A program made the translations under genes and the position numbers. Positions 2,829-23,180 of a DNA stretch of 24,191 bases are shown here, piece after piece. The first letter of the stretch is position 1, and each line of letters opens with the position of its first letter. This stretch comes from a virus (taxonomy: Duplodnaviria > Heunggongvirae > Uroviricota > Caudoviricetes): positions 1 through 24,191 of IMG/VR virus record IMGVR_UViG_2734482770_000005; one strand, 5' to 3'. The notes under the pieces are model-generated. The model was not told where the DNA came from and did no database searches. It saw only the letters and a program-made list of their open reading frames with translations.

Positions 2829-2945
2829 AGGGACAGGAAAACATTCCTATCCTCTAAATAATTAAACCAATGCACCGCACTTTGAAGCCCAAGAGGCTTG
2901 CAAGGTGTCTTTTTCTTTTAACCAAATAGAATAGGAGGTTAATTA

Positions 2946-3122: not shown

Positions 3123-3145
3123 TAACAGGAGAAGGAGAAAACCAA

Positions 3146-3938: not shown

Positions 3939-3947
3939 GGAGAATAA

Positions 3948-4205
3948 ATGGCTTATAACATCACTATAGGAAACAAAACTATTGAAATAACTGAAAGCGG
4001 ATACAACATTTTAAAAGCTATTTTGGACATAGAGTTCTCACCGCCGACAGTGGTTAGCTTTTGTAGTTTAGGCGGCTACAGCGCACAACACGTCAATCGT
4101 TTTACATCGTTCGGTGTGCTGGATTATGAAGGGATTAACAGCACTACATTTCGTCTTTTGAAATTAAACAAAGATTTTGAATTGTTTCTCACAAACAATC
4201 AATAA
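3948..4205 (+). CDS. hypothetical protein (85 aa)
   Basis: Ribosome-binding site aaggag immediately upstream; tightly packed after the previous gene. Confidence 0.5.
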   Translation: MAYNITIGNKTIEITESGYNILKAILDIEFSPPTVVSFCSLGGYSAQHVNRFTSFGVLDYEGINSTTFRLLKLNKDFELFLTNNQ

Positions 4206-4302
4206 CAACAGATCGGGCAATACATATGGCAAATGCATTTATGGCGATATTCATCGTAACAATGGCGTCCAGTTTTTATAATCCACATAAAAAGAGGGAA
4301 AA

Positions 4303-4686
4303 ATGGGAAGAAAGAAAAAGAACAACTTAAAACGTATTGAAAAAAACAGTAATTTCAATTCAAAAAGACAACGTCCACCGACACACACCAATAACGAAAT
4401 TCCAGGGGAAGAGATAATCTTTATTCTTGAAACAGAATCCCCTGAATTAAGTGATGAAGAATTAGAAATAATCCAATCAATGCCAGGCGTTTACTTTCGC
4501 CCAAGAACAAGAAAACAAACTATCATTTCTGATGGCACTCTGAAACGTTGGCAGCTTTTAGGGTTTAGCTCCTATCATCATTTTTTGGGATTTAACGCTT
4601 TCAATAATTGTGTAGGTGGTGCATCGGAAGTCGATCTGATGGCTCATTTAGAAGATACATTAGCTTCTAACAAACGTTCTAACTAA
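4303..4686 (+). CDS. hypothetical protein (127 aa) with very basic N-terminus
   Basis: agaggg ribosome-binding site upstream of ATG; N-terminus MGRKKKNNLKRIEK... Confidence 0.45.
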   Translation: MGRKKKNNLKRIEKNSNFNSKRQRPPTHTNNEIPGEEIIFILETESPELSDEELEIIQSMPGVYFRPRTRKQTIISDGTLKRWQLLGFSSYHHFLGFNAFNNCVGGASEVDLMAHLEDTLASNKRSN

Positions 4687-4701
4687 TAAAATGATGGGTG
4701 T

Positions 4702-4947
4702 ATGTATAAGCGCCCAATGAAAATATTCAAAAAAGGAAAAATAATGATTGGCTATATTCAAGAAACACAATTATTTCAGATGATCCTGTCTGATGCAAAA
4801 AACTATGCAGAGTTAATTCGGCTGGCAAAAGAAACAGAAGACTACGAAGCATTAGAGCGTTACCGTGATGAAGTGCTGACGCTCAAGACACCTTTTAACA
4901 TCGTATTGAATATGATTAATGATGCATTACAAGGAGAATACGCATAA
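4702..4947 (+). CDS. hypothetical protein (81 aa; alternative start at 4744, MIGYIQ...)
   Basis: ORF in track; the internal ATG at 4744 is preceded by aaaaaggaaaaa. Stop overlaps the start of the next ORF (ATAATGG). Confidence 0.4.
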   Translation: MYKRPMKIFKKGKIMIGYIQETQLFQMILSDAKNYAELIRLAKETEDYEALERYRDEVLTLKTPFNIVLNMINDALQGEYA

Positions 4948-5246
4948 TGGAAGAAGATATTAGCAATGCAATGGAACAACTTTTAGATCTGACTATCTCA
5001 CTACAAACAAGAATAAATCAAGCCTATTCAGATTTATGCGATTACACGCTCTCTCAATGCGTTATTAGCTTAATGAAGGTGAATGTAAGCCTTGACGATT
5101 TTATCTCTCTGGTGAGCGTATCAGAGGACGATGCAAAACAGTGTAATCAAATCATCACAGACATCGCCACCACGTTAAAGGTTGCAAGTGAAGAGATTCA
5201 GCAATTAGTAGATGATTTAGCAAAAAGTGCTATTTTCTCTAAATGA
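4947..5246 (+). CDS. hypothetical protein (99 aa)
   Basis: aaggag ribosome-binding site upstream; start overlaps the previous stop, suggesting an operon. Confidence 0.5.
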   Translation: MEEDISNAMEQLLDLTISLQTRINQAYSDLCDYTLSQCVISLMKVNVSLDDFISLVSVSEDDAKQCNQIITDIATTLKVASEEIQQLVDDLAKSAIFSK

Positions 5247-6188
5247 TAATGAAAATTATTTGCATTTATAATGATTTTGTTATATAATAATTTTAGGGGT
5301 AGATAAAAAGATTTTAGTTGGTGTTAATCCTTCTACTGTCATAAATCCCTGCATATGGAAGGTGATAGCCTCAAAGGTTGAGTGGCATTAACCTCTAACA
5401 AATATTACCTTCCATCTCTCAAGAAGTTTTAGAATAATCATAACTCCCTCTTTGATTGTTGATTGTTTCTACGTTGTGTTGATGAATGTTGTTAGGCATT
5501 GTGCTTAATTTTGATAAAAGCGGGTAGGTGTTATCTCCTTGCCCTTCCCGCTCTTATTTTTCATCTATGCTTATCCTAAAGCTCCTTATTTTGTCAGAAA
5601 ACATTAAAGAGCCTTACACTGATAGTTATATTTTATAACTATTTACTAACATCATTAAACTATTATTTAATGACAGAAGTTAGTAACAGAATAATCTATT
5701 AAGTTGTTGTCAAAAACAATCATCTGCATAGCGTTAGCCGCAAGCAGAGAGAGTTTAGCTAAGAATGGTGCAATAAACTTTGGAAATATTGATAGCAAAA
5801 CGGGTTTTATAGAATGCGGATCTATAAGCTTTGGTTGTAAAAACGATTTTCTGAAACGGTAGATTACTGTTGGTGTAGTTAATCATTATTAAAAATTTAA
5901 TCTGTGAGTAGATTGGAATAGTGATTCCTTAAAATCTGACTGGTGCATCCACACCATGAAAGATAGCGGTTGGCCACCGCGCCCCGAATAGATATTCCTG
6001 ATTGATTCCGCATGTTTTCCTAAGAGCATGTTTTCAGGAGTATCTATTCACCCTTTAAGCATATCATCAAGTATATTTAAAAAGTGTATTTGCTGATATG
6101 TTTAATCCTCTTATAGTTTAACTTATCAATTATGTAATTGCCCGCACGTTAAAGCCCCTTTGCTGGTCAGAATTAACCTCTTACGGCA

Positions 6189-6428
6189 TTGGGGCTTTTT
6201 ATTTGTCTGGCACTAACAGGAACATTATTTATGAAACAAGAAATGATTATCAGCAAAGACGGGGAAACGATGATTGTTAGTGATGAAAACCTCATTAAGG
6301 TTGCCGCACTGTTGGGAGTTACTCCCGAAAGTCTTCGTTCTACCACTGCTCAATTATTTAAATCGGCTGATGCGGTTAGTCTTGCTGATGCCCTTAAATC
6401 TAAAATTAAACAACTGAAAGGAAAATAA
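6189..6428 (+). CDS. hypothetical small protein (79 aa; more likely starts at 6231, MKQEMII..., 65 aa)
   Basis: ORF in track; in-frame ATG at 6231 follows aacaggaac. Confidence 0.45.
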   Translation: MGLFICLALTGTLFMKQEMIISKDGETMIVSDENLIKVAALLGVTPESLRSTTAQLFKSADAVSLADALKSKIKQLKGK

Positions 6429-6432
6429 TCTT

Positions 6433-6816
6433 ATGGCTAACCCATATGGAAAATTAAAAGCAGTGAATGCGGATAACTCCCGTTCACGCTGTAAGGTAGT
6501 AGCTTACGCTGCTGATCCAGTGCTGCAAGATCGCCTCGTCAAACTGGCTTCACCTCTCACTGACGATCTTATTGTCGGGGCTTTGCTGAAAGCCGATGGC
6601 ACCAAAGCAACAACCGCATCTGATATTGCTCACGTAGTAGTTGAACCGGCTTATGAAGGACAGGAAAGCGTAGTGGTTGCACATCCTACTTTCGTTATTC
6701 TGGCTGAAGATGGGATTGAATTTAACAGCATGGAAAAGGCAAGTGTTATTGCAAAACTGCAATCTCTCGGCTTTGTAATTGCTGGTTATGAAGAACTTGC
6801 GATCCCTACGACTTAA
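6433..6816 (+). CDS. hypothetical protein (127 aa), first gene of a structural-like block
   Basis: Ribosome-binding site aaaggaaaa; 4 bp after the previous stop; same strand and tight spacing as following genes. Confidence 0.55.
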   Translation: MANPYGKLKAVNADNSRSRCKVVAYAADPVLQDRLVKLASPLTDDLIVGALLKADGTKATTASDIAHVVVEPAYEGQESVVVAHPTFVILAEDGIEFNSMEKASVIAKLQSLGFVIAGYEELAIPTT

Positions 6817-6830
6817 CAAGGAAAATAATA

Positions 6831-7862
6831 ATGAATGATTTATCAACATATTTTGGCGTTAATACTGCGGTAGTAACTCCATTTGCTTATGAGAATGCAC
6901 TTAATACCCTGATTACTAATCTCGATCTGTTCGATGTGCAATATCATACAGAAAACAGCATTCTTCTTACCGACCTGATTGATCAGTTTGTGCAGGTAGC
7001 TGGGGAAACCTCGCCTTACGCTCAAAGCGACTGGAACGCCTCTAAACGTCAGGAATGGTCAAACAAACTTTTCCAGATGAAACACGTCGGCAGTATTAAC
7101 GCTGTTACTTCTCGTGACCTGGAACAATACAGCCGCCAATATCCAAACCGTTCTGATGCTATGCTGGTAGCGGTTAATGATTTCTCTGAGGCTCATTACC
7201 GTTCACACGCAAACCGTGTTGAAGTGGATCTGATTACCGCGCTGCTGGGCCTGAAAGTTGAATCTGAATATGCCGGACAAGGTGATCTCGACTTCCTCGA
7301 CGGTCAGGCTAAAACCACGGTACCCGCTATCGACTTTGCATCGACTACTGTTAACCCGTTCCTTGCTATTCGTAAAGCGGTGCGCTTACAGAGTGAAAAG
7401 CTGGGGTCTGGTCTTGCTGCAAAGCGAACTGGTGTAATTATCTTTGCTGCTGGCACTGCTGCTGATGGTTTGTCATCTAACCCGCTGATCAGTGACATGG
7501 TGAAATATGCAGGCGATGCGAGTGCTACGGCCCTGTTTACCCGTATGGTTGATTCTAACCCAGCCTATGACTCTTTCCAGATTGGTGGGATCACTGTTAT
7601 TGATGTGTCAATGTTTCCTGAGATTGTTGCTCACATCGGAGAGAACGGTTTCGCAATTGTTCCGGTAATGGATAAAGCGGCACAGTGTTACCAGCTTCAT
7701 AGCGGCGTTGGTGTGCGTCATGCTGAGTTAGGTCAAGATGCCGTGTTGCATCACCAATATCTAATCAAGGATGAATTCCAATTCCCATCTGTGGTTACTG
7801 AGACATCTTATCTGCCAGTAAACAACATTCCGCAAGCTATCATCTTCGGATCTGCTGCGTAA
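6831..7862 (+). CDS. hypothetical protein (343 aa), possible virion or structural component
   Basis: Ribosome-binding site aaggaaaa; long uninterrupted ORF with a different codon and GC profile from the P4 part. No catalytic motif recognised. Confidence 0.6.
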   Translation: MNDLSTYFGVNTAVVTPFAYENALNTLITNLDLFDVQYHTENSILLTDLIDQFVQVAGETSPYAQSDWNASKRQEWSNKLFQMKHVGSINAVTSRDLEQYSRQYPNRSDAMLVAVNDFSEAHYRSHANRVEVDLITALLGLKVESEYAGQGDLDFLDGQAKTTVPAIDFASTTVNPFLAIRKAVRLQSEKLGSGLAAKRTGVIIFAAGTAADGLSSNPLISDMVKYAGDASATALFTRMVDSNPAYDSFQIGGITVIDVSMFPEIVAHIGENGFAIVPVMDKAAQCYQLHSGVGVRHAELGQDAVLHHQYLIKDEFQFPSVVTETSYLPVNNIPQAIIFGSAA

Positions 7863-8013
7863 TAAAGCGTTAATAGACGATTCCCCATCGGGGCAATAAG
7901 GGTAAAGGGATTAACTAACCTGTAGGCGCAAATACAGTAACGAATCTCTTTGCCCTTTTTGTTTTTCTACTGTCTACAAACCCAAATAAAAATATATATG
8001 TGAGAGAAAACCA

Positions 8014-8211
8014 ATGAATACAGAAAACCCACAATCCTTTATTCTTAAGGCTGTAAAAGAACTGGCAGCTATTAGCGAGGAATCAGTTATAAACACATCG
8101 GCGCTTTGCCGCCTTTTAGAAATTGATGCAAATAATGTGCGCCAGCGTGTCTTTCAGACTGGGTGCAGCACTTTCGAAGCAATTCAATACTATTGCTCTA
8201 AAAAACAATAA
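8014..8211 (+). CDS. hypothetical small protein (65 aa)
   Basis: ORF in track in the gap between two larger + strand genes; weak ribosome-binding site. Confidence 0.3.
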   Translation: MNTENPQSFILKAVKELAAISEESVINTSALCRLLEIDANNVRQRVFQTGCSTFEAIQYYCSKKQ

Positions 8212-8245
8212 TAAACAACAATCATAATACAGGGAAACAATTAGC

Positions 8246-10087
8246 ATGTTAGAACTTAACGTCAGCCGCTTATCAAACGTTGTCACCTTCCAGGTTGATC
8301 GACCATCATTAGAGAAAGCAAAAGCAGAAGTAGAAAAACTTCGTAAACAAATGGCGGCGGTGAAAGATATAGAATTGCGTGTTAAGACACATAAACAATC
8401 AACTTCTAAAGCAAAAAAAGACGTAGACGATATTGCTAAAAAGCAAGCACAGGCAGATAAAGCCAATGCTAAAGCACAATTAGCCGCTCAACGTGTAGTT
8501 GCAAGAGAACAAAAAGCCCTGGCAGCACGCAAAGAGAAGGCAGACTTAAAACTGTTAGACGTTGGATCAAGCATTAGTGCATTGCACCGCCTTTCTGTAG
8601 CGGAACAATATAAAGCTATTGCACAGGCTAGAGAAATTGCCCTCCAATATGAAAGAGGAGCTATTAGTCTGGCACGTATGAATAGCCAAATGAAACGCCT
8701 ACAACAGCAACAACGTAAGATTAATGGCAATCGTAACGCTCACGCTAAAGCCTATGCACCTGTTAAGGGTAGCGGGAGTATTGGCGGCGGTGCTGCGGCT
8801 GTTATGCTGGGTGGCTTAGGCGCTGGCGCTACGTATATGGCTATGAGCAAAGCCTCTGAATTTGTTACTAACAGCTTTGCGAATGCTGAAACGCTGGGTG
8901 AATTGTATAGCCGTGCGAAGCTGGGCGGTGTAGACGTTAACCAGATGAACAATATTGAGCAATGGGCCTACAAAAACGGCGTTGATTCAATGATGGGGGA
9001 TCAAGGTAAACGTAAGTATCTCGATCAGATGAAAGATGTGCGTGAGCGTGCAACCAAAAGCTATGATGAGGCTGAATATGTAGTCGATAAAAAAACAGGC
9101 AAAGGTGAATGGAAGGGCGGCGATAGCGGCATCAATACTTTAATGAATGAAGGATTCTTAACTAAAAAGGATCTAAAAGACTTTGCTGATAATCCGGCTG
9201 GTCTGGTTAGTAAAGCAGTTCAGGGAATGGTGAAGAAAGGCTATTCAGATGCACAAATCGGTAGTCGTCTGGAAGATCTGGCTGATGATTTGATGCTCAC
9301 CTCTAAATACTGGACACGCTCCGCTAAAGAAGTGGAACAATCAGCACGAGAACAACGAGAATCAGGGCGCTGGGTAACACAGGCACAACAGGAAAGCGTT
9401 ATTAAATTCCGTGAACTGAATAATGCACTTAGTGGGCTTTCTGACTCACAAGGGATCGCCTTTGTTGATGGCTTTATGAAATCTCTTGATCCGAAAGTGA
9501 TTGAAGAGTTTAAAAAGAGCATGGTTGCAATGCTGCCAATGTTTACCAAATTAGGCGAGGCTATCGGCGGATTGGTTAACGCCGTAATGAAAACAATCAA
9601 CTGGCTGATGAAAAACGACGAGAAGACGGAAGCTATTCAGAAGAATTTAGGGGATGCACCGCCACTATCTAACGAAGGAATGAAGCAGAATCTTTCTAAT
9701 CTCACTCCTGATCAATATAAAGGCGCTGGCACCGGAACAACTAAGCCAGATAACAGCAATTCCCTGGTTAACACTATTAAAAGCTGGTTTATGCCAGAAG
9801 AAACGGTAGGTGGGGCGCAGGCTGTAAATCAATACAGTCTCGAAGGACAAAACATTGCAAATCTGAAACAGAGTGCAGCACAACAAGCTTTCAAGGCTCC
9901 TTCTTACACCTTTGCACCTGTTATTAACTTCAATCCAGAATTACAAGTAAATGCAGAAGTGCCGCTAACTATCGAATCAGACACCGGACGATTGAGCGAA
10001 TTTATCGACTTCAAATCAAAGGCATCCTCCGCTGAGTTTAGCAAGCTATTAACGCTGGGTGTTATGTCAGGCGGGTCAACCTATTAA
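8246..10087 (+). CDS. large coiled-coil protein with Gly/Ala-rich hydrophobic segment (613 aa); tape-measure-like or membrane-associated structural protein
   Basis: N-terminal 150 aa are Lys/Ala/Gln/Glu-rich heptad-like sequence (EKAKAEVEKLRKQMAAVK..., KAQLAAQRVVAREQKALAARKEKADLK); then GSGSIGGGAAAVMLGGLGAGATYMAM, a glycine-zipper-like hydrophobic stretch. Confidence 0.6.
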   Translation: MLELNVSRLSNVVTFQVDRPSLEKAKAEVEKLRKQMAAVKDIELRVKTHKQSTSKAKKDVDDIAKKQAQADKANAKAQLAAQRVVAREQKALAARKEKADLKLLDVGSSISALHRLSVAEQYKAIAQAREIALQYERGAISLARMNSQMKRLQQQQRKINGNRNAHAKAYAPVKGSGSIGGGAAAVMLGGLGAGATYMAMSKASEFVTNSFANAETLGELYSRAKLGGVDVNQMNNIEQWAYKNGVDSMMGDQGKRKYLDQMKDVRERATKSYDEAEYVVDKKTGKGEWKGGDSGINTLMNEGFLTKKDLKDFADNPAGLVSKAVQGMVKKGYSDAQIGSRLEDLADDLMLTSKYWTRSAKEVEQSAREQRESGRWVTQAQQESVIKFRELNNALSGLSDSQGIAFVDGFMKSLDPKVIEEFKKSMVAMLPMFTKLGEAIGGLVNAVMKTINWLMKNDEKTEAIQKNLGDAPPLSNEGMKQNLSNLTPDQYKGAGTGTTKPDNSNSLVNTIKSWFMPEETVGGAQAVNQYSLEGQNIANLKQSAAQQAFKAPSYTFAPVINFNPELQVNAEVPLTIESDTGRLSEFIDFKSKASSAEFSKLLTLGVMSGGSTY

Positions 10088-10134
10088 TCATCACTGTGGG
10101 GCTGTTTAGCCCCCTTAAATAAGGATTACAAATT

Positions 10135-10812
10135 ATGGCAATGGGTCCGTTAACCATTGGTCGCCCGACTGAGGCGAAAATCAACAGCACAAGCAACGAT
10201 AGCAACGGTAGAACAACCAAAGGGGGTAACGGCTTTGCGATCATTACCTCTAATCTCGGCAGTGGTGCAAATGCTGCTTACAATGACTACCAGGCATTAT
10301 CATTTGATAGCGTGGAATCGACGAAAGTTAGCAGAAATGCGGACGTTACAAGCTATGCCGTCGAATCAGGATCAGAAGTTAGTGATCATGTTCAAATACG
10401 GAATAACAAGTTCACATTACAAGGGCGTATCTCTGAAACCGTATTGAAGCTCAATCCTGATATGATTAAGAATGCTGGAATTAACGGCAATCGACGTATG
10501 CTTATGCTTGAATACCTAAATCAGTTGATGGACAGTCGCCAACCTTTCCTACTTGTCACTGAGTTAAAAAATTATGACAACGTTGTGTTAGTTGGCATGT
10601 CTTACGAAGAAGAAGCAAGCGAAAGCCTATTGTTTACTCTTGATTTTGAGCAAATCCGTCTTGTCTCTAAAGCAACTACAAGCGCAATTGCGGTAAAAAC
10701 AGCACCAAATAAATCTGTAGGAGGCCAGGTTAAAATGCAGGTAAATACAACAGAACAGAAAAATCAAAAAAGCCCAGGGCAAGACGTTGTAACGCCAGTA
10801 TTTAAACAATAG
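10135..10812 (+). CDS. hypothetical protein (225 aa)
   Basis: aagga ribosome-binding site; follows the 613 aa gene after a short hairpin-containing gap. Confidence 0.55.
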   Translation: MAMGPLTIGRPTEAKINSTSNDSNGRTTKGGNGFAIITSNLGSGANAAYNDYQALSFDSVESTKVSRNADVTSYAVESGSEVSDHVQIRNNKFTLQGRISETVLKLNPDMIKNAGINGNRRMLMLEYLNQLMDSRQPFLLVTELKNYDNVVLVGMSYEEEASESLLFTLDFEQIRLVSKATTSAIAVKTAPNKSVGGQVKMQVNTTEQKNQKSPGQDVVTPVFKQ

Positions 10813-10853
10813 CCTTAAACGCCTATGAAACGCTCTGTAACGAGATAATCATA

Positions 10854-10885
10854 AAAGAGGCATCAGTCTATATTGAAGCCTCTTT
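10854..10885. terminator. hairpin between convergent genes, candidate intrinsic terminator (best fit for the - strand integrase transcript)
   Basis: Perfect 8-bp stem aaagaggc / gcctcttt around a 16-nt loop; on the - strand the stem is followed by a U-rich run (uuuuaugauuau). Confidence 0.4.
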
Positions 10886-10892
10886 ATTACGT

Positions 10893-12257
10893 CTATAGCG
10901 TTGTTTTACGCCTTAAATTTGATTTTTTATTGATTGATAAGCCTTTCTCTATTTCAGGGTAGCGTAAAAGCTCAATATATTTTTTAAGCTCTATTGGAGA
11001 AGCTGCATTTTTGCTATATGTGCGGAATGTTTCTGTATTGCCGCGTGTATGGCCCAGGAGAAGGGCGATCCTGTCTTCTGGAATTTGATTTCGATCAAGA
11101 AGCTGTGCTACTCCGTGTCTCAGAGAATGAAACACTTTCCTTTCTGTTCCCTTTTCCCCTAAAGCCTTTCGTTTAGCTCTTGTAAATCGTTGTGTATGCC
11201 ACGTAGAGCGTTTACCGTCAGCACGTTCTGTAATGCTGGCGTGATAGAACAAAAAGCCATTGTGAGGCTTTTCACGCAGCGACAACACCAACGGAGTGAT
11301 AAGGTTATGCACAGGCACAACACGTGCCGCAGCTTTCGTCTTTCCCTGTGTGATTTCAAAACACAGCACACCTTCGATCTCTTTCACATCGTCTATTGTG
11401 AGACTTGCTATCTCATTGATCCGCATACCTGTATATAAACCGATAAGACACAAAGCCGTCATTTCTTTGTTTTCTGCTGAATTACCGGAAAATACTTGCA
11501 ACACCTGCAATAGCTCTTTGTTAGAAAATGCCTCGTAGCTCTCTCTACTTTGTGCCACATCAAGCCTATGCCCTCGCCAGGGGGAGAGCGCCCTTTCTGG
11601 CGCATCGTGGTAACGTGATGAAGCTAATTCCCATAGCTGGGCCATTGGACTGATATAATTTGCAATTGATTGTTGTGAAAGAGTTTTTTGCATGTGTTCA
11701 ATCCAGCCTGTAACAGTGGTGCGGCTTACATCTTGCAATGCAATATCAGGCTTTTTACGGTAGGAGAGAAACATCTCTACCGCTTTTCTTGCCTTAGCTA
11801 AAGTGGCTGGCTTCTTCTTCGTGCTGTTAATTGTCAGGTAGATTTCAAGAATTTTAAGCAATGACGGACACGAAGACGCTGTATCTTGCACTCTGGTAGC
11901 TGTTTTGGCGTATTTAGCCTTACTGCGTAACAGTTCCAGCGTGTTTTCTATTGTGCTGTTTACAGGGGCAACACTCTCCCGTAAGCAATGGTATTCATCT
12001 GCAATCTGATCACGCTTTCTACGTGCAACACGAAGATTACTTGTGTGTAGACTTCTGACAAACGTCCTTTTTCCTTCAAAAAAGGGCTGCATATACACAG
12101 GCAGCGTGATCCTTAAATAGTAGTTACCGTAAGAATCACAGATTAAGTATTGGTTAGGCTTGTATCTCATAAAATCTCCGGCTAAAGTGTCGGAGCGTTT
12201 GTAATGTGAAAATTGATTGTGACGCATAGAAAATGATGATTTTTCTATAAGATTCAA
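10893..12257 (-). CDS. tyrosine recombinase / phage-type integrase (454 aa)
   Basis: C-terminal catalytic region carries integrase signatures: GMRINEIASLTIDDV, HSLRHGVAQLL (H-x-x-R box) and LLGHTRGNTETFRTYSKN (tyrosine nucleophile region). Confidence 0.8.
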   Translation of the reverse strand: MNLIEKSSFSMRHNQFSHYKRSDTLAGDFMRYKPNQYLICDSYGNYYLRITLPVYMQPFFEGKRTFVRSLHTSNLRVARRKRDQIADEYHCLRESVAPVNSTIENTLELLRSKAKYAKTATRVQDTASSCPSLLKILEIYLTINSTKKKPATLAKARKAVEMFLSYRKKPDIALQDVSRTTVTGWIEHMQKTLSQQSIANYISPMAQLWELASSRYHDAPERALSPWRGHRLDVAQSRESYEAFSNKELLQVLQVFSGNSAENKEMTALCLIGLYTGMRINEIASLTIDDVKEIEGVLCFEITQGKTKAAARVVPVHNLITPLVLSLREKPHNGFLFYHASITERADGKRSTWHTQRFTRAKRKALGEKGTERKVFHSLRHGVAQLLDRNQIPEDRIALLLGHTRGNTETFRTYSKNAASPIELKKYIELLRYPEIEKGLSINKKSNLRRKTTL

Positions 12258-12314
12258 TCAATTAGTAATGGTCGTAGGTGATGGCATTAACACGAGATTA
12301 ATCGAGTGTTTTAC

Positions 12315-12332
12315 TCCTATTATCGGCACCAT
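12315..12332. repeat. candidate attL core of the P4-like element (direct repeat of 23639-23655)
   Basis: tcctattatcggcaccat here matches tcctattatcgcaccat at 23639-23655 with one 1-nt indel; both copies sit at the expected outer edges (int side and crr side). Confidence 0.4.
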
Positions 12333-12495
12333 CTCCACTTCTTCAAACATCCGTATTTATCCATAACCGCACTGTTTTATAAAAGATTTTTTGTTTTTAC
12401 TGTTCGTATTAGTCCATAACTTTCCAGTAGAATCCAGTACTAAATGTGTATAGGATTATGTATATGTTCCTGTTCGATTTTGGAATTCTATACAC

Positions 12496-13680
12496 ATGCC
12501 CCTAAATGATATGCAGATTCGCCGTGCTAAACCTGAAGCTAAAGCCTATACACTTGGGGATGGGCAAGGGTTGTCTTTACTTGTAGAGCCAAATGGAAGT
12601 AAAAGCTGGCGATTTCGTTATCGCTATGCCGGTAAACCCAAAATGATCTCGCTTGGTGTTTACCCAACGATCACTCTTGCTGATGCTCGTTCCCGTCGTG
12701 ATGAAGCTCGAAAACTTGTGGCAGAAGGAAAGAACCCTAGTGAGGTTCGAAAAGAGCAAAAGCTGGCTCTGCAAACAGAGTCAGAGAACGCCTTCGAAAA
12801 GATAGCCAGAGAGTGGCATCAACAGAAGTCTACCAAATGGTCGGCGGGATATGCATCAGACATCATGGAAGCGTTTAAGAACGACATTTTTCCTTATGTG
12901 GGAACAAGGCCAGTGGGAGAGATTAAACCGCTAGAACTGCTTAATGTGCTGCGTAAAATCGAAAAGCGCGGTGCATTAGAAAAAATGCGCAAAGTTCGGC
13001 AGCGATGCTCAGAAGTTTTCCGCTATGCCATTGCTACTGGAAGGGCTGAGTTTAACCCTGCTGCGGATCTTTCAAGCGCCCTCAATGTACACCAATCAAA
13101 TCATTTCCCGTTCTTAAAGGCTAATGAGATACCTGATTTTCTTCGCGCCTTAAACGGATATACCGGAAGTCGGCTTGTCCTGATTGCCACGAAATTGCTC
13201 ATGATTACAGGTGTTAGAACCATCGAATTACGTGCGGCATTATGGTCAGAATTTGATTTAGATAACGCTATTTGGGAAATTCCTGCTGAAAGGATGAAAA
13301 TGCGCAGATCACACCTTGTGCCTTTGTCGACTCAAGCGTTAGATTTGCTAAATGAACTCAAGATGATGACAGGGAAGTATAGTTATGTTTTTCCGGGGCG
13401 GAACGATCCGAACAAGCCTATGAGTGAGGCGAGTATTAACCAAGTTATCAAGCGTATTGGTTATGGTGGAAAACTTACTGGTCATGGATTTCGACATTCC
13501 TTATCTACTATCCTCCACGAAAAAGGATATGATTCGGCTTGGATAGAAATACAGCTTGCTCATATAGATAAGAATAATATTAGAGGTACGTATAATCATG
13601 CTCAATATATTGATAAACGCCGTGATATGATGCAGTGGTATTCAGATTATATTTTTATTAAGGAGAATGTGAATGAGTAA
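12496..13680 (+). CDS. int: P4-type tyrosine integrase (394 aa)
   Basis: N-terminal arm-binding region typical of P4/CP4-57 integrases (MQIRRAKPEAKAYTLGDGQGLSLLVEPNGSKSWRFRYRYAGK); C-terminal catalytic motifs HGFRHSLSTIL and LAHIDKNNIRGTYNHAQYIDKRRDMMQWY. Confidence 0.9.
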   Translation: MPLNDMQIRRAKPEAKAYTLGDGQGLSLLVEPNGSKSWRFRYRYAGKPKMISLGVYPTITLADARSRRDEARKLVAEGKNPSEVRKEQKLALQTESENAFEKIAREWHQQKSTKWSAGYASDIMEAFKNDIFPYVGTRPVGEIKPLELLNVLRKIEKRGALEKMRKVRQRCSEVFRYAIATGRAEFNPAADLSSALNVHQSNHFPFLKANEIPDFLRALNGYTGSRLVLIATKLLMITGVRTIELRAALWSEFDLDNAIWEIPAERMKMRRSHLVPLSTQALDLLNELKMMTGKYSYVFPGRNDPNKPMSEASINQVIKRIGYGGKLTGHGFRHSLSTILHEKGYDSAWIEIQLAHIDKNNIRGTYNHAQYIDKRRDMMQWYSDYIFIKENVNE

Positions 13681-15301
13681 CGAGTTTGATAGTAGTAAAC
13701 TAGAAAATTGCTTTGAGCTTGCATTGGAAAATATTATAAAGCACGGCGATACAGATATTTTCCCTTACCCATTTGAAAGTCGGTTATTTGAAGATGATAA
13801 GGAGAAAGTAAAAACTGCATTAATGCAAACATTTAATGACTTTGAAAATAAAAGGATCGAGATTCCACCAAACATAATTAATAGCTTTTCAAGTATTGGT
13901 TATTATGGTTACAGGTGGGCGACCCAAATTGATCCATTCTGGAATGCTTTTTTTCTTGGGTTAGTTTTAAAAATCGCTGATGATATTGAAAGGAATAGAT
14001 CTACTAAAACGCAGGTTTATTCATATCGCTTTAAACCAAACCTTGCTGATGGTTCTCTTTTTGATAAAGAGATCTCTTGGAGAAAATATCAAGAAGACAG
14101 TATCTCTGAATGTTCTAACGATGAAATAAAGTATGTACTTACATGCGATATAGCAGATTTCTATCCGCGTATTTATCACCACCGTTTAGAAAATGCGTTA
14201 GATAGAGTCGACCCCAATAAAGATTACTCTGGGAAAATCAAGAAATTACTACAGACATTTAGTGAAACAAAATCATATGGAGTACCAGTTGGATGTCCTG
14301 CCTCTAGAATATTAGCAGAACTAGCTCTAGATTCTATTGATAAATTATTGTCTATGAATAGAATCAACTATAAGCGTTATGTCGACGACTTTGTTATTTT
14401 TTGTAACTCTAGAGAGGATGCTCATAAGATTTTAACTTTGCTTAGTAAAAAACTGATGGAAAATGAAGGGCTAACTTTACAGAAACAAAAAACCAATATT
14501 GTTACTAAAGAAGAGTTCCTTTCAGTAACTAAAGCTAAGTTGCATGGTAATGATGAAGATGAAGAATCTCCTATGAAGGCTAAATTTATGAGTCTTCCTA
14601 TAAGATTCGATCCTTACTCAGCAAATGCGATAGAGGAATATGAAGAGATAAAGGAATCTTTAAAAGATTTTGACTTGTTAGCTATGCTGAGTAGTGAGTT
14701 ACAAAAATCAAAAATTAACCAATCTTTTAGCAAGCATTTGATAAAGGCATTCTCAGCAACATCAGATGAAATAATAAGTAGTGCTTTCAAAGTAATGTTT
14801 AATAACTTGCATGAGTTATATCCAATATTTACAACTATAATTCAAGTAGCTAACTCCAACTGGCAAAAATTAAGCACAGAAACCAAAGATATTATTCTTG
14901 ATAAAATAACTGCACTAATTAAACAAGATTCATATATTTTGAGTACTGAGCTCAACTTAGCCTATGTAGCCCGAATGCTCTCAAAAGAAAATTCAGAAAA
15001 ATCCACCCTAATCCTTAGTGAAATATACAATAACAATCCAGAAAGCATCTTAGTCAAGAACATAGTTACACAGTCAATGGCAAAAATTAATTCTTACGCA
15101 TGGCTTTCTGATATCAAAAAAAATTTCTCTGCAATGCATCCGTTGCAGAGAAGACTATTGATCGTTTCCAGTTACATCTTAGGTGATGAAGGACGGCACT
15201 GGAGAGAGCATAATAAGAAAACATTCAACTTTGTAGAGGTGATTTACAGGGATTGGGCAAGTAAAAGGCATACCGCAAGAAATCTTGAGGATGCGCTATG
15301 A
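13673..15301 (+). CDS. reverse transcriptase (542 aa) with helical C-terminal extension; non-retron, non-intron defence-type RT suspected
   Basis: RT motif A CDIADFYPRIYHH, motif B SYGVPVGCPASRILAELALDSID, motif C with catalytic YVDD (YKRYVDDFVIF). Start overlaps the int stop by 8 nt with aagga ribosome-binding site. GC is visibly lower than in neighbouring P4 genes. Confidence 0.85.
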   Translation: MSNEFDSSKLENCFELALENIIKHGDTDIFPYPFESRLFEDDKEKVKTALMQTFNDFENKRIEIPPNIINSFSSIGYYGYRWATQIDPFWNAFFLGLVLKIADDIERNRSTKTQVYSYRFKPNLADGSLFDKEISWRKYQEDSISECSNDEIKYVLTCDIADFYPRIYHHRLENALDRVDPNKDYSGKIKKLLQTFSETKSYGVPVGCPASRILAELALDSIDKLLSMNRINYKRYVDDFVIFCNSREDAHKILTLLSKKLMENEGLTLQKQKTNIVTKEEFLSVTKAKLHGNDEDEESPMKAKFMSLPIRFDPYSANAIEEYEEIKESLKDFDLLAMLSSELQKSKINQSFSKHLIKAFSATSDEIISSAFKVMFNNLHELYPIFTTIIQVANSNWQKLSTETKDIILDKITALIKQDSYILSTELNLAYVARMLSKENSEKSTLILSEIYNNNPESILVKNIVTQSMAKINSYAWLSDIKKNFSAMHPLQRRLLIVSSYILGDEGRHWREHNKKTFNFVEVIYRDWASKRHTARNLEDAL

Positions 15302-16038
15302 TATCTGAATTAACGTTTTCTCGAAAATTCACTTCATTTTGGAATCAATTGCTTCCAAATGCTAATAATTTCATACGCATCATTAACGGCAGTCTCATCG
15401 AGGACGTTTATCCTCCTCTAGATGACTGCGCTAATAGGTCAAATAACGTCTTTGTTAATGAGTGCGCATTTAATTTATATAGGGCAATACAGAATGATTC
15501 GTTAGACAGAAATATTCTTTCAGCACATGATATCTTCCATAATGCTGATTTTCAGGTTGTTTTTGAAAAAACAAAAGAATATCTACAGCGGTTCGCTTAC
15601 GGTTCTAACTTCAAGCTACCCTTAAGCATGGTTGAGTACAATGCCATAAGGGAAATAGCAAGAAACATTTTGTCTCGATATGGAATGGAAAACCAAATTG
15701 AAGTGTCTCCACAATTCGATGGATGCGGAGTAATAAATAATTCATATGGCGATATTTATTATTCAAATGTTCTTGTGGAAATAAAATCAGGAGATAGGAA
15801 GTTTAGTGTTTACGATCTTAGACAGGTGCTAATATATTTCACTTTAAACTTTTACTCAAAAAACAAAAGAAACATCAAGAGATTTGAGCTTTTCAATCCT
15901 CGGATGGGTATCACTTATAGTGATACCATTGTCAACCTTTGCAAAGAGTTGGCGTTTATTCAACCTGAAGAATTGTACTTTGAGATAATGAATTCTATTA
16001 CAGAAGAAAATTTCATAGTAACTGAAATGCAACGCTAG
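15298..16038 (+). CDS. RT-associated accessory protein (246 aa), putative effector; function unknown
   Basis: ATGA start/stop overlap with the RT gene (translational coupling). Soluble, no obvious transmembrane segment. Weak motifs: R-x5-H (DRNILSAHD) and D-x11-E-x-K (GDIYYSNVLVEIK). Confidence 0.6.
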   Translation: MISELTFSRKFTSFWNQLLPNANNFIRIINGSLIEDVYPPLDDCANRSNNVFVNECAFNLYRAIQNDSLDRNILSAHDIFHNADFQVVFEKTKEYLQRFAYGSNFKLPLSMVEYNAIREIARNILSRYGMENQIEVSPQFDGCGVINNSYGDIYYSNVLVEIKSGDRKFSVYDLRQVLIYFTLNFYSKNKRNIKRFELFNPRMGITYSDTIVNLCKELAFIQPEELYFEIMNSITEENFIVTEMQR

Positions 16039-16047
16039 ATATCATGC

Positions 16048-16075
16048 AGACCGCTACAATCCATTGTAGTGGTCT
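16048..16075 (+). terminator. stem-loop just after the accessory gene stop, possible terminator or RNA structure
   Basis: agaccgctacaat cc attgtagtggtct gives a 13-bp stem with one G-U pair, 10 nt after the TAG stop, followed by atttct. Confidence 0.35.
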
Positions 16076-16157
16076 ATTTCTAAACGTTCCTTCTGACGAA
16101 TAAAGCCAAAATACCAAATAGAATTAAAGAAAATTATAATATCAGCCTTAGCGCGCA

Positions 16158-16176
16158 ATGCTCCCCCCGCCACGCC
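16158..16176. other. cos: candidate cos site (P2/P4-type 19-nt cohesive end sequence)
   Basis: Minus-strand reading of 16158-16176 is GGCGTGGCGGGGGGAGCAT, which matches the P2/P4 cohesive end as I recall it (GGCGAGGCGGGGAAAGCAC) at 15 of 19 positions. It sits between the cargo and psu, where cos lies in circular P4. Confidence 0.45.
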
Positions 16177-16278
16177 CGCCCGCTTTGCGGGGCGGTTTTA
16201 ATGCAGTTGCACTGACACGCTCAGACCGCGCCGGGAATGGCGCGGTCTGCAGAAAATGAGGCAGGGAAACGCATGCAA

Positions 16279-16310
16279 AGCCATGCACCTTATCGATGCA
16301 TGGCTTTTTT
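16279..16310 (+). terminator. Rho-independent terminator (+ strand orientation) before the psu 3' end
   Basis: Perfect 9-bp stem agccatgca / tgcatggct with 9-nt loop, followed by a run of five T (16306-16310). Confidence 0.55.
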
Positions 16311-16340
16311 CAGTAAAAACGGGCGGATTTTCGGGGAATT

Positions 16341-16913
16341 TTACACAGACTGACGTGATGCCAGTTGCGCACTTTTACGCGAAAAAATCATGTTCTGCGC
16401 AGGGGTGAATTTTTCACGGCTGTCATCCACCGAAGCCGCGTCAGGCCTGAATCCGATGGTCGTTAAAATGTCGCTATCCTGTGCGGAATAATTAATTTTT
16501 TCCCCCTTCGCAAGCCAGGACAGAAGGGCTTCACGCAGGGCATCTGTGGCACGCTGTATGGCACAGTTTCGGGCAATGGCCGTCAGCTCACTGTAGCCCA
16601 TCAGCTCCGGTGCCAGTGCGGCCGCCAGTACTGTGCCGTGCTGCTGCATAAAATCATTCAGCCGGTCGCGGATGCTGATGTGCTGAACGGCTTCATGCGA
16701 ACGAATATAACGACCGGCGGCCTGATTCACCTGCCATTTTCTGACTTCGATAATATTGCGTAATTCGTCCAGGCGGCTGACGTTTCTGCCTTCTCCTGAC
16801 AGAAGCCGCAGATATTCCTGTTCGGCCGCTGCCAGCTCATTTTTGCGTTGCAGCCATGCTGCTTTGTTATTCTGACAGGTGTCAAAGGCCTGCTGTAAGG
16901 CTGTGCTTTCCAT
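16341..16913 (-). CDS. psu: P4 Psu (polarity suppression / capsid decoration protein), 190 aa
   Basis: 190 aa, the P4 Psu length; the sequence MESTALQQAFDTCQNNKAAWLQRKNELAAAEQEY... matches P4 Psu as I recall it; position immediately 5' of delta and sid on the same strand. Confidence 0.8.
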   Translation of the reverse strand: MESTALQQAFDTCQNNKAAWLQRKNELAAAEQEYLRLLSGEGRNVSRLDELRNIIEVRKWQVNQAAGRYIRSHEAVQHISIRDRLNDFMQQHGTVLAAALAPELMGYSELTAIARNCAIQRATDALREALLSWLAKGEKINYSAQDSDILTTIGFRPDAASVDDSREKFTPAQNMIFSRKSAQLASRQSV

Positions 16914-16986
16914 CGTTATCTCTTTCTCATCATGCTGAAGAATAAAAATACGGTGTGCGGCGACGGCCGGTGTTAACCGGCAGCCC

Positions 16987-17487
16987 TCATTCCAGACGCA
17001 GCGAATATGATTGTGTTTTTAAGCGTACTGGCGGCAGTTCCTGTTTTTCATGCAGGCTTTCTGCCAGTTCGTCCGGCGTGACCGGGCGGACAATGAAGCG
17101 GTTGATGGTCTGAAGCGTTTTAAACACCAGACCACAGCCCGGATCCGTGCACACATAAAAACGCTCGGTGACTTCCTGAGACAGACGCCGCGATGTTCTT
17201 GACAGTGCAAGGCCTTTACATCTCCGACAACAATATCCGGTAACAAGCATTCTTTTCGGGCGTTTCATACTGCCGGAGGCTGACGTCAGTGAATCGCGGT
17301 ATCTCTGTTTGCCTGAAATGTATTCCATTCCTGAATCTTTACAGTCAGAGAAAAAGCTTTCACTCGCTTCAAATGTCGCAGAGCAATAAATATTCCGGCA
17401 CTGTGCAATCATTATCTTGGTGCCATCGTCCATGAAATGTGCGCGACGGGTGTGAGCAACATGTCCACACGACGGGCAGTAAATCAT
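16987..17487 (-). CDS. delta: P4 Delta late-gene activator (Ogr/Delta zinc-finger family), 166 aa
   Basis: Two Cys-rich Ogr-like modules (CPSCGHVAH...CRNIYC and CCRRCKG...CTDPGC); 166 aa as in P4 Delta; overlaps the sid stop by 4 nt. Confidence 0.85.
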   Translation of the reverse strand: MIYCPSCGHVAHTRRAHFMDDGTKIMIAQCRNIYCSATFEASESFFSDCKDSGMEYISGKQRYRDSLTSASGSMKRPKRMLVTGYCCRRCKGLALSRTSRRLSQEVTERFYVCTDPGCGLVFKTLQTINRFIVRPVTPDELAESLHEKQELPPVRLKTQSYSLRLE

Positions 17488-18218
17488 GACAGCAGTCCTC
17501 TGGCCTTAAGCTCTGCTCCCTGCTGGTCTATTTTGTCCTGCCACACCTTGCGCTGTGCCGGTGTGCCTGCCACCTCATAATCCATGTGCGGGAGTGTTGC
17601 CGCTGACAGTCCGGTCAGCCGGAGAACCGGCTCGCCGGTGAGGCTGATTTGCATCTGTTTTATTTTCTGTTCCAGCGATGATTTCACCTGCTGCATGACA
17701 GCTTTATCGGGTGCGACGTAGCCCTGATGGCCGGTGGTGTTGGCGAGCGGATTTTCCTGTACCAGGATGCTCAGATGCATTGCCCGGACAAGCGCCTCAC
17801 AGGTTTCATTCAGGGCGTGTTCCAGCTCATTCTCTGCATACAGACTCAGAAGGTGATGATGTGCCTTCCGGTAGGCGGTGGCCGTGCTGTCACACGCCCC
17901 TTTCAGGCGTTCACGTTCAAAATTCAGCACCACGGCCAGATTGTCATATTCCTGTACCAGCTCCCGGCGTGCCACGCGCTCAATGTGGCGCTGTTTCAGC
18001 TCGTCGCTCAGGACACCACCGGCTGCACGAAAGGCCGTGCGCCAGTCGTCAGCGTCGTTTCCGTCGGCCTGCGCCAGCGCATTTTTTTCCTGCTCTGCCC
18101 GTTCAATGGCCGTGACGGTCTCATCCATCAGGCGGGCGTTCTCAAGATGGGCGGCTCTGGCCTTTTCCAGTTGTGCCAGCGCGGGTTGCAGATATTCAGG
18201 GATGGTGTTGTCAGACAT
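17484..18218 (-). CDS. sid: P4 Sid (capsid size determination external scaffold), 244 aa from MSDNTIPEY
   Basis: The track ORF 17484-18284 extends upstream of the likely start; the ATG at 18218 is preceded by aggagccggaaa and gives 244 aa (the P4 Sid length as I recall it). The protein is largely helical and coiled-coil-like. Confidence 0.8.
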   Translation of the reverse strand: MSDNTIPEYLQPALAQLEKARAAHLENARLMDETVTAIERAEQEKNALAQADGNDADDWRTAFRAAGGVLSDELKQRHIERVARRELVQEYDNLAVVLNFERERLKGACDSTATAYRKAHHHLLSLYAENELEHALNETCEALVRAMHLSILVQENPLANTTGHQGYVAPDKAVMQQVKSSLEQKIKQMQISLTGEPVLRLTGLSAATLPHMDYEVAGTPAQRKVWQDKIDQQGAELKARGLLS

Positions 18219-18290
18219 TTTCCGGCTCCTCGTCACTTCAGGTTGAGAAAATTGTGACGTACACCGGACAACAACACGACGCATTGCAGA

Positions 18291-18308
18291 TGTGCCAGCC
18301 CTGACACA
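18291..18308 (-). promoter_or_regulatory. candidate Delta/Ogr-responsive late promoter element (Psid) with dyad symmetry
   Basis: TGTGCCAG CC CTGACACA is an imperfect dyad of the TGT-N-ACA type about 75-90 bp upstream of the sid start, where P2/P4 late promoters carry their activator-binding dyad. Confidence 0.35.
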
Positions 18309-18387
18309 GGAGACTCATCCTCAGACCGGCAAGCCAGGAAAAGGTCGCAGGAAAAAACGGCTTACTGTTTGTTTTTTTATATTTTAC

Positions 18388-18491
18388 TGTTCACCTCTGT
18401 TCACCATAAGAAAAAAGATAAGTAATACAGTAAGTTAAAGGGTGAACAATCGCAGTAATGACTGTTCACCGTCTGTTCACCACTGTTCACC
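18388..18491. repeat. cluster of TGTTCACC octamer iterons (5 direct, 1 inverted), candidate alpha-binding replication element (ori-like)
   Basis: tgttcacc at 18388, 18398, 18463, 18474 and 18484; ggtgaaca (inverted) at 18441. The same octamer recurs in the crr-like repeats at 23219-23525. Confidence 0.6.
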
Positions 18492-18769
18492 CGTTGATGG
18501 GCTTTTTATGCTGTTTATTACTGTTTATTTTTATTAATTCACTGAAATAAATAAGAAAAAACAATTTGCATTTCACTATAAAAAATTCCAGGTCCTTCAG
18601 AACCCTTTGAGACCCTTCCAGTCCAGATGGATAAAAAACACACAGCCATTGTAAGGCTGCCGGAACAAATCCCCCCTGTTGCGTCTGCCAAAAATATTCA
18701 CAAAATAAAGCGCTACCCGAAGCCGGACGGACTTATCCGGTGCTGTATGGACATTAACGAGGTAGCCCG

Positions 18770-19036
18770 ATGCAAGCTGTTTTTTCTTCCCCGTCTCCTG
18801 CCCCTGTGACGCCACTGATGCCGCTGCCGGACATCACGCAGGAGCGTTTTTTACGTCTGCCGGAAGTGATGCACCTGTGCGGCCTGTCACGCTCGACCAT
18901 CTATGAACTCATCCGTAAGGGGGAATTTCCGCCGCAGGTGAGCCTTGGCGGTAAAAATGTGGCCTGGCTGCACTCTGAAGTCACTGCATGGATGGCCGGG
19001 CGCATTGCCGGACGCAAACGGGGGTACGACGCATGA
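18770..19036 (+). CDS. AlpA/Vis-family small transcriptional regulator (88 aa; alternative start at 18815, MPLPDITQ...)
   Basis: Typical AlpA-family sequence: [47 protein letters not shown]. Confidence 0.75.
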
Positions 19037-19130
19037 TGATGCCCGCTCTGCAAAAAGTCCCTTTTTCTGGCTTGCCTTTTTCCGGCATTTGCGGATATAG
19101 TTTTTCCGCTGCCGCAAAATCGGCAGCCGG

Positions 19131-19422
19131 GCGTGAGAACCCGGGCAATCTAACGGCGACATATGACGCGCCATGCGTCTTTTTTTGTGTCGCAATCAAC
19201 GCCACAGAGCGCCAGATTATGGTGTGGTGTGTGGTCAGTCGTGCAGATGGCACTCCGTGCATCCTGCCCGCGTCCGCTCATTATGCCGCAGAGTCAATGG
19301 TAGCTCAGGCGGGGCAGCCTCCGGGCTGGCCGGTATCCGTTAGAGCCGGTATTCTCACCCCCGTCTGGGCTATCGCCATCGAGCGTGAGAACTCCGGCGA
19401 TAGCGTAACCTGCTATCTAACG
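19131..19422 (+). ncRNA. putative P4-type immunity-RNA region (seqA / seqB / seqC-like arrangement)
   Basis: Direct repeats gcgtgagaacccgggcaatctaacgg (19131-19156) and gcgtgagaactccggcga...ctatctaacgg (19383-19422) flank ccgttagagccgg (19337-19349), which is complementary to the ccggc...tctaacgg part of both repeats. No well-supported protein ORF covers the interval. Confidence 0.3.
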
Positions 19423-19435
19423 GAGGCTGCCATCA

Positions 19436-19632
19436 TGGCTACAACCCTTACCCCCTCACACCCTGAATTTGTCTTTGTGTTTGCCGCTGTCCGTCGCGCA
19501 GACCGCCATCCCCGTATCTGTATGCTTCGCACCGTCGCCGGTGATGAACGCAGCGCCCGCCGTTCCCTTGTCCGTGACTATGTGCTCTCCCTTGCTGCCC
19601 GTCTGCCGGTTGTGGAGGTGTCCCGTGCGTAA
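19436..19632 (+). CDS. hypothetical small protein (65 aa) in the P4 left-operon region
   Basis: ATG at 19436 preceded by ggagg; in frame with track ORF 18988-19632, whose upstream part looks like a GC-rich spurious extension. Confidence 0.3.
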
Positions 19633-19912
19633 TAAAAAAGCCCCTCAGACCGTCTCAGCGCGTCATGACGCCCGTGAACACCTCAGCATTGAGGCTTACC
19701 ATAAGCTCAACCGCGCCAGCGCCGTATCCCAGTTTGTTGGGGGTGATTTGATTCACCGTGAACTCTCCGGCCTGCATCAGCTCTACATTCCGCATATTTT
19801 CAGTTACCTGAATGAAGATATTGATTTTGTGCTGAATGAACTGAAAGCCAAAGGCCTGTGCCGCGATTTTCTCGCCCAGCAGAAAGACCGGGGAGACAGG
19901 ACGCATGTTTGA
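19626..19912 (+). CDS. hypothetical small protein (95 aa, GTG start), possibly epsilon-like
   Basis: ggaggtg ribosome-binding site 5 nt before GTG at 19626; in frame with the 3' part of track ORF 19469-19912. Confidence 0.4.
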
Positions 19913-20360
19913 TTTTCCCCAGCCCGGTGAGATTTACCGTTCTGCCGGTTTTCCCGATGTGGCCGTGGTCGGCATTCTGGAAGACGGTATTCCGTGGGAA
20001 ATGCCGTACCGCTGCCCGGAAATTGTCTGGAACCCGTACCGCCGTAAATTCAGTATCCTTGTGCGTATCCTCGCCGACGGGCGCACCACAGACATCCCGC
20101 TGGGGCGTTTTCTGCGGGAATTTACCTGTGACCGTCCTGACCTGTTCAAACGCAGCCCCGTAAACCGGCATGCGGTACTGAAAGAAATGGCCGGAGACCC
20201 GGAATTACAGAAATGGCGGGAGAAATATCTGGATATTTACCCGCAGGACCCTGTTCCGGTCAGCCGGGCGGCACCGGTGGCGCGGGAATGGCGGGAAATT
20301 CCCCGCACGGAGCCTGACCCGGAAATCACCCCGGATAACAGTTACCGCAATTATCTGTAA
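19905..20360 (+). CDS. hypothetical P4-family protein (151 aa, same size as P4 orf151)
   Basis: Coherent ORF with start overlapping the previous stop; lies between the regulator region and alpha as in P4. Confidence 0.55.
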   Translation: MFDFPQPGEIYRSAGFPDVAVVGILEDGIPWEMPYRCPEIVWNPYRRKFSILVRILADGRTTDIPLGRFLREFTCDRPDLFKRSPVNRHAVLKEMAGDPELQKWREKYLDIYPQDPVPVSRAAPVAREWREIPRTEPDPEITPDNSYRNYL

Positions 20361-20495
20361 TTAAAAAACGACACCCGAAAAATTAAATGTGCGTATTCGC
20401 GCAGGGATACGCACGTCTTCAGGAGACGCAGATATGCCTTATCAGTTAATGCAACCGGCACGGAATGCAGTCATCTGTCACAGGGAGGAAAGCAA

Positions 20496-20816: not shown

Positions 20817-20830
20817 AGGAGAACAACACC

Positions 20831-23164: not shown

Positions 23165-23180
23165 CCCTCATAACTCATCT

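Follow-up and report, generated by a model that had tools for sequence, protein, structure and literature searches.

Several described systems lie close to the locus studied here. The P4-like satellite phiR73 reportedly has selC as its target, and an island in thrW is said to have been described by Parreira and Gyles in 2003. Integrase subfamilies are also said to prefer particular tRNA sublocations, the classes of which reportedly go back to Williams in 2002. P4 itself (NC_001609) has an attP core of 20 bp that ends in CCA, which we take to be the 3' end of the tRNA-Leu gene leuX (after Pierson and Kahn 1987). The integration of phiR73 into a tRNA gene is documented, tandem P4-like elements have been noted (PMC8628076), and the empty-interval logic that is used below has served to delimit att sites in thousands of P4-like elements (PMC13586616). 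In E. coli, thrW is among the most used tDNA hotspots (PMC7545054), and the CP4-6 element of K-12 integrates in this gene and reconstitutes it (PMC3105296). P22 also attaches in thrW, and the gene is dispensable in Salmonella (bioRxiv 10.1101/2024.04.04.588050).

We analyzed a stretch of viral DNA of 24,191 nucleotides (the window), which maps to the proA-thrW-yagP region of E. coli. A first-pass annotation had reported an imperfect direct repeat at the outer edges of a P4-like element within it, and both copies were found exactly where and as it gave them, with tcctattatcggcaccat at 12315-12332 and tcctattatcgcaccat at 23639-23655, the right copy being the left copy minus one G of a GG pair. 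The sequence TCCTATTATCGGCACCA is identical to the last 17 nucleotides (positions 60-76) of the E. coli tRNA-Thr(CGU) gene thrW, a segment that spans the last T-loop base, the 3' strands of the T stem and the acceptor stem, the discriminator base, and CCA. The left copy matched thrW at 17/17 positions, and at 18/18 when the next base (T) was included, and the right copy matched the 3' end of the gene at 16/17 positions with one deletion. In strain EC12 (L001), the 3' end of thrW reads ...GGTTCGAC-TCCTATTATCGGCACCA-T, an 18/18 match to 12315-12332. Judged by these matches and by the genome comparisons that follow, the two copies are almost certainly the attachment-site cores of site-specific integration into the 3' end of thrW.

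The annotation had also found no tRNA at the junction. This held for the window itself: ARAGORN found no tRNA or tmRNA in the 24 kb, and a search against Rfam at gathering thresholds returned no tRNA either, the only Rfam matches in the window being P4 immunity RNAs (Table 1). It did not hold for the repeat, which is the 3' end of a tRNA gene. The gene was placed upstream of the window by synteny with genomes identical to it at the window start (L001, L005, and L013). Window position 1 corresponds to position 8213 of L001, where the annotated tRNA-Thr occupies 7531-7606, and thrW ends 606 nt before window position 1 in L001, in L005 (which carries element A alone), and in L013, which has the largest share of the window (91% at 97.3% identity). 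ARAGORN predicted an intact tRNA-Thr(cgt) of 76 nt at the proximal end in L001, L004, L005, and L012. In L001, the exact 17-mer occurred twice compared with 0.08 occurrences expected, and none of 100 shuffles held two. No match to the whole window was present in the genome collection; the best matches covered 91% at 97.3% and 87% at 99.4% identity. Att cores mapped beyond the window had been named by the annotation as the outcome that would speak against its reading, and for the tRNA this is what was found, with thrW about 606 bp to the left of the window.

Table 1. Coordinates of the features of the window, with strand where assigned
Feature	Position(s)	Strand	Remarks
Element A (~12.9 kb)	1-12314		Left 606 bp and thrW attL lie outside the window; same 17-bp core
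Element A DNA invertase	719-1276	-	
Element A HTH replication-initiator-like protein	3270-3938		
Element A 343-aa protein	6831-7862		Homologues at 42-49% identity, annotated major capsid protein E / PF03864
Element A tape-measure-like protein	8246-10087		
Element A Dit-like protein	10135-10812		
Element A tyrosine integrase	10893-12170	-	DUF6538, SAM-like, and catalytic domains; right end of the element
Middle att core	12315-12332	+	Perfect copy of thrW nt 60-76 (TCCTATTATCGGCACCA) plus T
P4-like satellite body (11.3 kb)	12333-23638		int, DRT8, cos, psu, delta, sid, vis, CI/C4 RNA, eps, alpha, crr
Direct repeat CGTATTnnTCCATAAC	12352-12367 and 12405-12420	+	Between the core and the int/P' arm repeats
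Arm-type repeat ATGTGTATAG, P' arm	12444-12453	+	Followed by a degenerate tandem partner, ATTATGTATATG
Inverted arm-type repeat	12488-12497	-	Overlaps the int start codon, as in P4
P4-family tyrosine integrase (394 aa)	12496-13680	+	Arm-DNA-bind_3, Phage_int_M, and Phage_integrase domains
DRT8 defence cargo	13673-16038		
cos-like 19-mer	16158-16176	-	GGCGTGGCGGGGGGAGCAT
vis	18770-19036		
c4-a1b1	19095-19147		Rfam
isrK	19108-19185		Rfam
CI/C4 RNA (C4 antisense RNA)	19293-19380		Rfam
alpha	20831-23164		
crr	23219-23518	+	Two 120-bp direct repeats, 180 bp start to start
Two tandem arm-type repeats, GTGTGTATAG and ATGTGTATAG, P arm	23558-23579	+	
Satellite attR core	23639-23655	+	Displaced thrW 3' end without one G, then native flank
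Native chromosomal flank (B')	23656-24191		From empty-site comparison
Truncated LysR-family pseudogene yagP	23781-24191	-	

The comparison with related genomes that the annotation had suggested as its check was made by synthetic-junction searches of 5,426 complete E. coli genomes. An empty site, with thrW joined directly to the sequence right of 23655, was found in 948 of them (L002 is an example), and its boundaries agree with those of the repeat. The satellite int region directly after an intact thrW was present at 100% identity in 120 genomes, and the right end of element A was joined to the native flank in 277. The junction of element A with the P4-like satellite as it stands in the window occurred in 29 genomes, and the reverse order (thrW, P4-like satellite, core, element A) occurred in at least one (strain SC467). 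Each element was also found alone between thrW and yagP', the satellite in strain H3 (L004) and element A in strain EC195 (L005). In every configuration that we aligned, the boundaries fell on the same 17-18-bp block, and genomes with a single element or an empty site gave exactly the boundaries that had been claimed for the P4-like element. Thus, the two elements appear to be independently mobile with a common core, although the empty sites, solo elements, and arrays in both orders would speak for past mobility only. In exact searches of viral contigs, the predicted excised attP junction was found for neither element, and the attP junction of the satellite was found in no metagenome contig and no species-representative genome. 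The locus combines several features of a tDNA att duplication, namely, flanking repeats identical to a tRNA gene, an intact proximal tRNA gene in syntenic genomes (L001, L004, L005, and L012), empty sites with the same flanks, and an integrase that adjoins att inside the element.

In the model that we propose for these arrangements, each tyrosine integrase would have recombined its own attP, carrying the 17-18-bp block TCCTATTATCGGCACCA(T), at nucleotides 60-76 of thrW. Integration would duplicate the block, such that the copy on the tRNA side keeps thrW intact and the distal copy becomes a redundant fragment. The resulting array would run from proA through intact thrW, element A, the core at 12315-12332, the satellite, and the core at 23639-23655 to yagP'-paoDCBA. 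Since both elements use the same block, the middle copy would be a hybrid that acts as attR for element A and as attL for the satellite, which accordingly has no tRNA body beside it. The displaced thrW fragment that forms the right copy is nonfunctional. Excision of the satellite would leave its junctions inside TCCTATTATCGGCACCAT. In this model, we infer which element integrated first and where precisely the crossover took place.

The annotation had regarded a 17-mer match of this kind as unlikely to arise by chance, and this argument proved weak. We generated 200 dinucleotide-preserving shuffles of the window and counted as a pair any direct repeat with at least 17 matched nucleotides and one 1-nt indel; 44% of the shuffled windows contained at least one such pair (mean of 0.575 pairs per shuffle). 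The repeat alone is therefore not significant, and this frequency of pairs of equal quality somewhere in a shuffled window is what could be cited for a coincidental repeat in an element whose true ends lie elsewhere. Against such a coincidence, more than 1,300 genomes with empty, solo, or tandem sites place the boundaries at exactly the same positions. The core also has the sequence of a tRNA 3' end, and the attP is laid out colinearly with that of P4. It is because of its location and of what it matches, not its length, that the repeat is meaningful, and on the comparative data a chance origin may be taken as already refuted, with practically no probability left to it. The use of a non-tRNA target by the P4-like integrase, with the repeat as a target duplication unrelated to any tRNA, had been suggested by the lack of a detectable tRNA in the 24-kb window. 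This proposal is refuted by the 120 genomes in which the same int directly follows intact thrW; the repeat also equals nucleotides 60-76 of that gene, and thrW lies 606 bp left of the window in the syntenic genomes, so that we consider it vanishingly improbable. A tRNA-independent P4-type integrase was accordingly rejected as a candidate, its appearance being an artefact of the window edge and the tandem neighbour. The chief value of the analysis is the correction of this apparent non-tRNA target.

Another arrangement that would account for part of the data is a single composite island of about 24 kb occupying 1-23655 and reaching from thrW to the core at 23639, in which the copy at 12315 would be a relic inside the island and no functional junction between two independently mobile elements. 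Composite excision is conceivable, given that the three cores are compatible with one another, and the same junction between element A and the satellite is shared by 29 genomes. However, each element is found alone at thrW with the same boundaries, the opposite order also occurs, and each element has a separate integrase. Pairwise similarity between these two integrases was not significant (E = 0.57). A composite island is thus very unlikely, and two elements that share an att core are the reading that we carry forward.

The one base that distinguishes the two copies corresponds to G70 or G71 of the acceptor stem of the tRNA. In short exact-junction counts, the P4-type P arm was followed by the core with the deletion in 83 genomes and by the GG core in 2. 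No 100% match was obtained for the GG version of the right junction. Both GG cases (L011 and L012) belong to another satellite lineage, with nuclease and UvrD cargo, and a remnant with a 94%-identical P arm also carries the deletion. The same deletion, together with the same native flank, was found at the right end of a gtr prophage (L009), whose identity block with thrW starts from the anticodon loop, and a tRNA-like left context accompanies the deletion in 116 genomes. Additionally, the deletion was present in empty sites where thrW itself is 75 nt long, in strain SW070919 (L010 8957-9031) and also in H176. These 75-nt genes look like the footprint of excision from a site with a decayed displaced fragment, and since thrW is dispensable in Salmonella, a damaged thrW would plausibly be tolerated.

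The simplest reading of this distribution is that the missing G is a polymorphism of the redundant displaced thrW fragment, which would have arisen in that unselected copy and would travel with the right flank. If the deletion travels with the right flank, the crossover lies to the left of it, within TCCTATTATC. It is also conceivable, and we give this a minor but substantial share of the probability, that the deletion belongs to the satellite attP and that the strands are exchanged in GCACCAT, on its right and at the extreme 3' end of the tRNA gene. The ratio of 83 to 2 genomes at the P-arm junction, the deletion beside the 94%-identical P-arm variant, and the origin of both GG cases from a different satellite lineage would all agree with an attP-borne deletion. 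Furthermore, the cores of P4 and thrW share only their right end, TCGGCACCAT, and the adjoining P' arm is conserved. In contrast, a deletion that moves together with the right flank of the chromosome would be the simplest way to account for the same deletion and flank beside an unrelated gtr prophage and for the empty 75-nt thrW genes, and the 116 genomes in which the left context is tRNA-like also speak against an attP-borne deletion. For the integrase of element A, an exchange to the right of the G fits the pattern in L003, where the deletion is on the left junction of the element and GG on the right. The one-base deletion is a natural marker and could be used to map the crossover of this P4-family integrase.

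Between cos and crr, the satellite is a close relative of P4. Window positions 16177-23518 aligned with P4 positions 4291-11624 at 97.6% nucleotide identity in the order cos end, psu, delta, sid, vis, cI, eps, alpha, crr, and the Psu, Delta, Sid, Vis, Eps, and Alpha proteins were 96-100% identical to those of P4. Vis was 99% identical to P4 Vis, and the genes for both Int and Vis are intact. The core set of P4-like satellites is complete, with psu, delta, sid, alpha, epsilon, an integrase, cos, crr, and the CI RNA. Homology to P4 stops exactly at the outer edge of crr, which is the last P4-homologous segment before the att core, and just past cos on the other side. The cos-like 19-mer of the satellite differs from the cos of P4 (GGCGAGGCGGGGAAAGCAC) at four positions. 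The DRT type 8 system between int and cos consists of a Drt8 reverse transcriptase of 542 aa (E = 4.9e-166) and an associated PD-(D/E)XK nuclease of 246 aa (E = 5.5e-69), and its location is the psu-int defence hotspot known from P4-like satellites (PMC9122126). In place of DRT8, a sister lineage that uses this att site has an ATP-dependent nuclease and UvrD helicase pair. Overall, the satellite is essentially phage P4 with the segment from cos to attP swapped for another int/att module and DRT8. A P4 backbone is thus able to accept, besides DRT8 cargo, an exchanged int/att module that is specific for thrW.

The integrase of the satellite has the P4-type domain architecture and is 39% identical to P4 Int. 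Its gene starts 163 bp from the core, and the distance between each core copy and int or crr, 120-165 bp, agrees with P4. We reconstructed attP by joining the right end of the satellite to its left end and aligned it with the annotated attP of P4. The two were colinear, with tandem arm repeats on both arms and an inverted repeat at the int ATG; the cores fell in the same columns, both ending in TCGGCACCAT, and were followed by a conserved ACTTC...ATCCG. The P-arm repeats stand at the same distance from the core as the GGGGGCA repeats of P4. All five matches to ATGTGTATAG in the 24-kb window, with up to one mismatch allowed, were located within about 225 bp of a core copy, and we infer from the positional analogy with P4 that Int would bind these arm repeats. 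The direct repeat CGTATTnnTCCATAAC is a possible accessory-factor site, perhaps for Vis or IHF.

Exact boundaries can now be given for both elements (Table 1), and element A is conserved in hundreds of E. coli genomes, either by itself or as part of an array. Neither a portal nor a terminase was recognised in element A, which is not obviously a full prophage and corresponds to no satellite type described so far. Two patches of it (3132-3298 and 3365-3682) showed 93-98% DNA identity to small early-region open reading frames of large virulent Stephanstirmvirinae (PaulScherrer, VEcB, Mt1B1_P17, muut, inny, and BI-EHEC), and the rest of the element had no match in the phage collection. The only PDB match of the putative capsid protein was a weak one to Phi92_gp124 (E = 0.014). 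These matches suggest that element A and phi92-like lytic phages recently exchanged DNA; any link between them as satellite or through defence is speculative.

The ends of element A showed further features. The arm at 12272-12314 (GTAATG...GGTCGTAGGT) is about 50% similar to thrW nucleotides 28-59 and may be a diverged tRNA-like portion of the attP of element A. The 10-nt GGTCGTAGGT at 12272-12281 was also considered as a relic of a longer thrW-like core and was rejected, similarity upstream of the core being only about 50%. The left end of the element, which lies outside the window, resembles the native sequence downstream of thrW (AAAATCAATAAnTTA). In strain ESBLEC_HM50 (L003 3440-3600), element A is preceded only by a 48-nt 3' fragment of thrW, which carries the same G deletion and lies beside dhaR. 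There, a third island stands after element A and carries a 646-aa integrase, RADAR, AAA-ATPase/UvrD, and toxin-antitoxin genes, a layout that suggests a rearrangement or a longer array.

A broader interpretation of the locus is that two integrases without detectable pairwise similarity converged on one 17-18-bp thrW core and that their elements stack in either order. Element A would then represent a satellite-like element of a kind not yet described, with a capsid gene of its own and with DNA exchange between it and virulent phages of the Stephanstirmvirinae (phi92-like). Taken as a whole, we consider this interpretation unlikely. If it were true, the cores would be interchangeable, and either integrase could in principle excise its neighbour or the 24-kb composite, which would fit a P2-sized capsid. 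Element A could then be comobilised by the P4-like satellite, or compete with it, via the shared att site.

Compared with P4, the satellite has the same backbone from cos to crr and the same attP layout, which runs from crr through two tandem arm repeats, a core ending in ...TCGGCACCA-T, and two further tandem repeats to the inverted repeat at the int ATG. It differs from P4 in the core, which is GAGTCCGGCCTTCGGCACCA in P4 and TCCTATTATCGGCACCA (thrW) here, in the arm repeats (GGGGGCA in P4 and ATGTGTATAG here), and in the gop-beta-cII region, the place of which is taken by DRT8. With a different core, different arm repeats, and an Int of only 39% identity, it does not belong with the leuX-specific P4 int/att module; its int/att region works like the P4 module and is of a different specificity class. 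Like phiR73 and other P4-like satellites, it is integrated in a tRNA gene and carries defence cargo between psu/cos and int, whereas it differs from phiR73 in the tRNA target and in the cargo, a retron in phiR73 and DRT8 here.

CP4-6 shares the host gene thrW and the right flank yagP-paoD with this locus. However, its core consists of the 3' 48-49 nt of thrW from the anticodon stem, compared with 17-18 nt here, and its integrase, IntF, is at the distal end, whereas the satellite Int is proximal. IntF is 23-24% identical to either integrase of the window (23% to the satellite Int), and the satellite is thus not integrated in the CP4-6/IntF manner. CP4-6 as a case of a P4-type integrase adjoining thrW was likewise rejected, IntF being distal, with a 48-49-nt core, and unrelated to either integrase. 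The P22/Shigella-type gtr prophages also use thrW as attB, and a gtr prophage leaves a displaced thrW fragment beside the same flank; they differ in an identity block of about 44 nt from the anticodon loop and thus in the tRNA sublocation. These comparisons indicate that different sublocations of a single nonessential tRNA gene serve at least three integrase lineages. As in other tandem arrays at tRNA genes, the elements here have a common att core, lie head to tail, and leave the tRNA gene intact only at the proximal end, whereas the neighbours in this array have unrelated integrases and yet an identical 17-bp core, in both orders. Overall, the P4-like element belongs with the classical cases in which a P4-family integrase inserts its element into a tRNA gene, and the tandem array stands at a hotspot that was already known.
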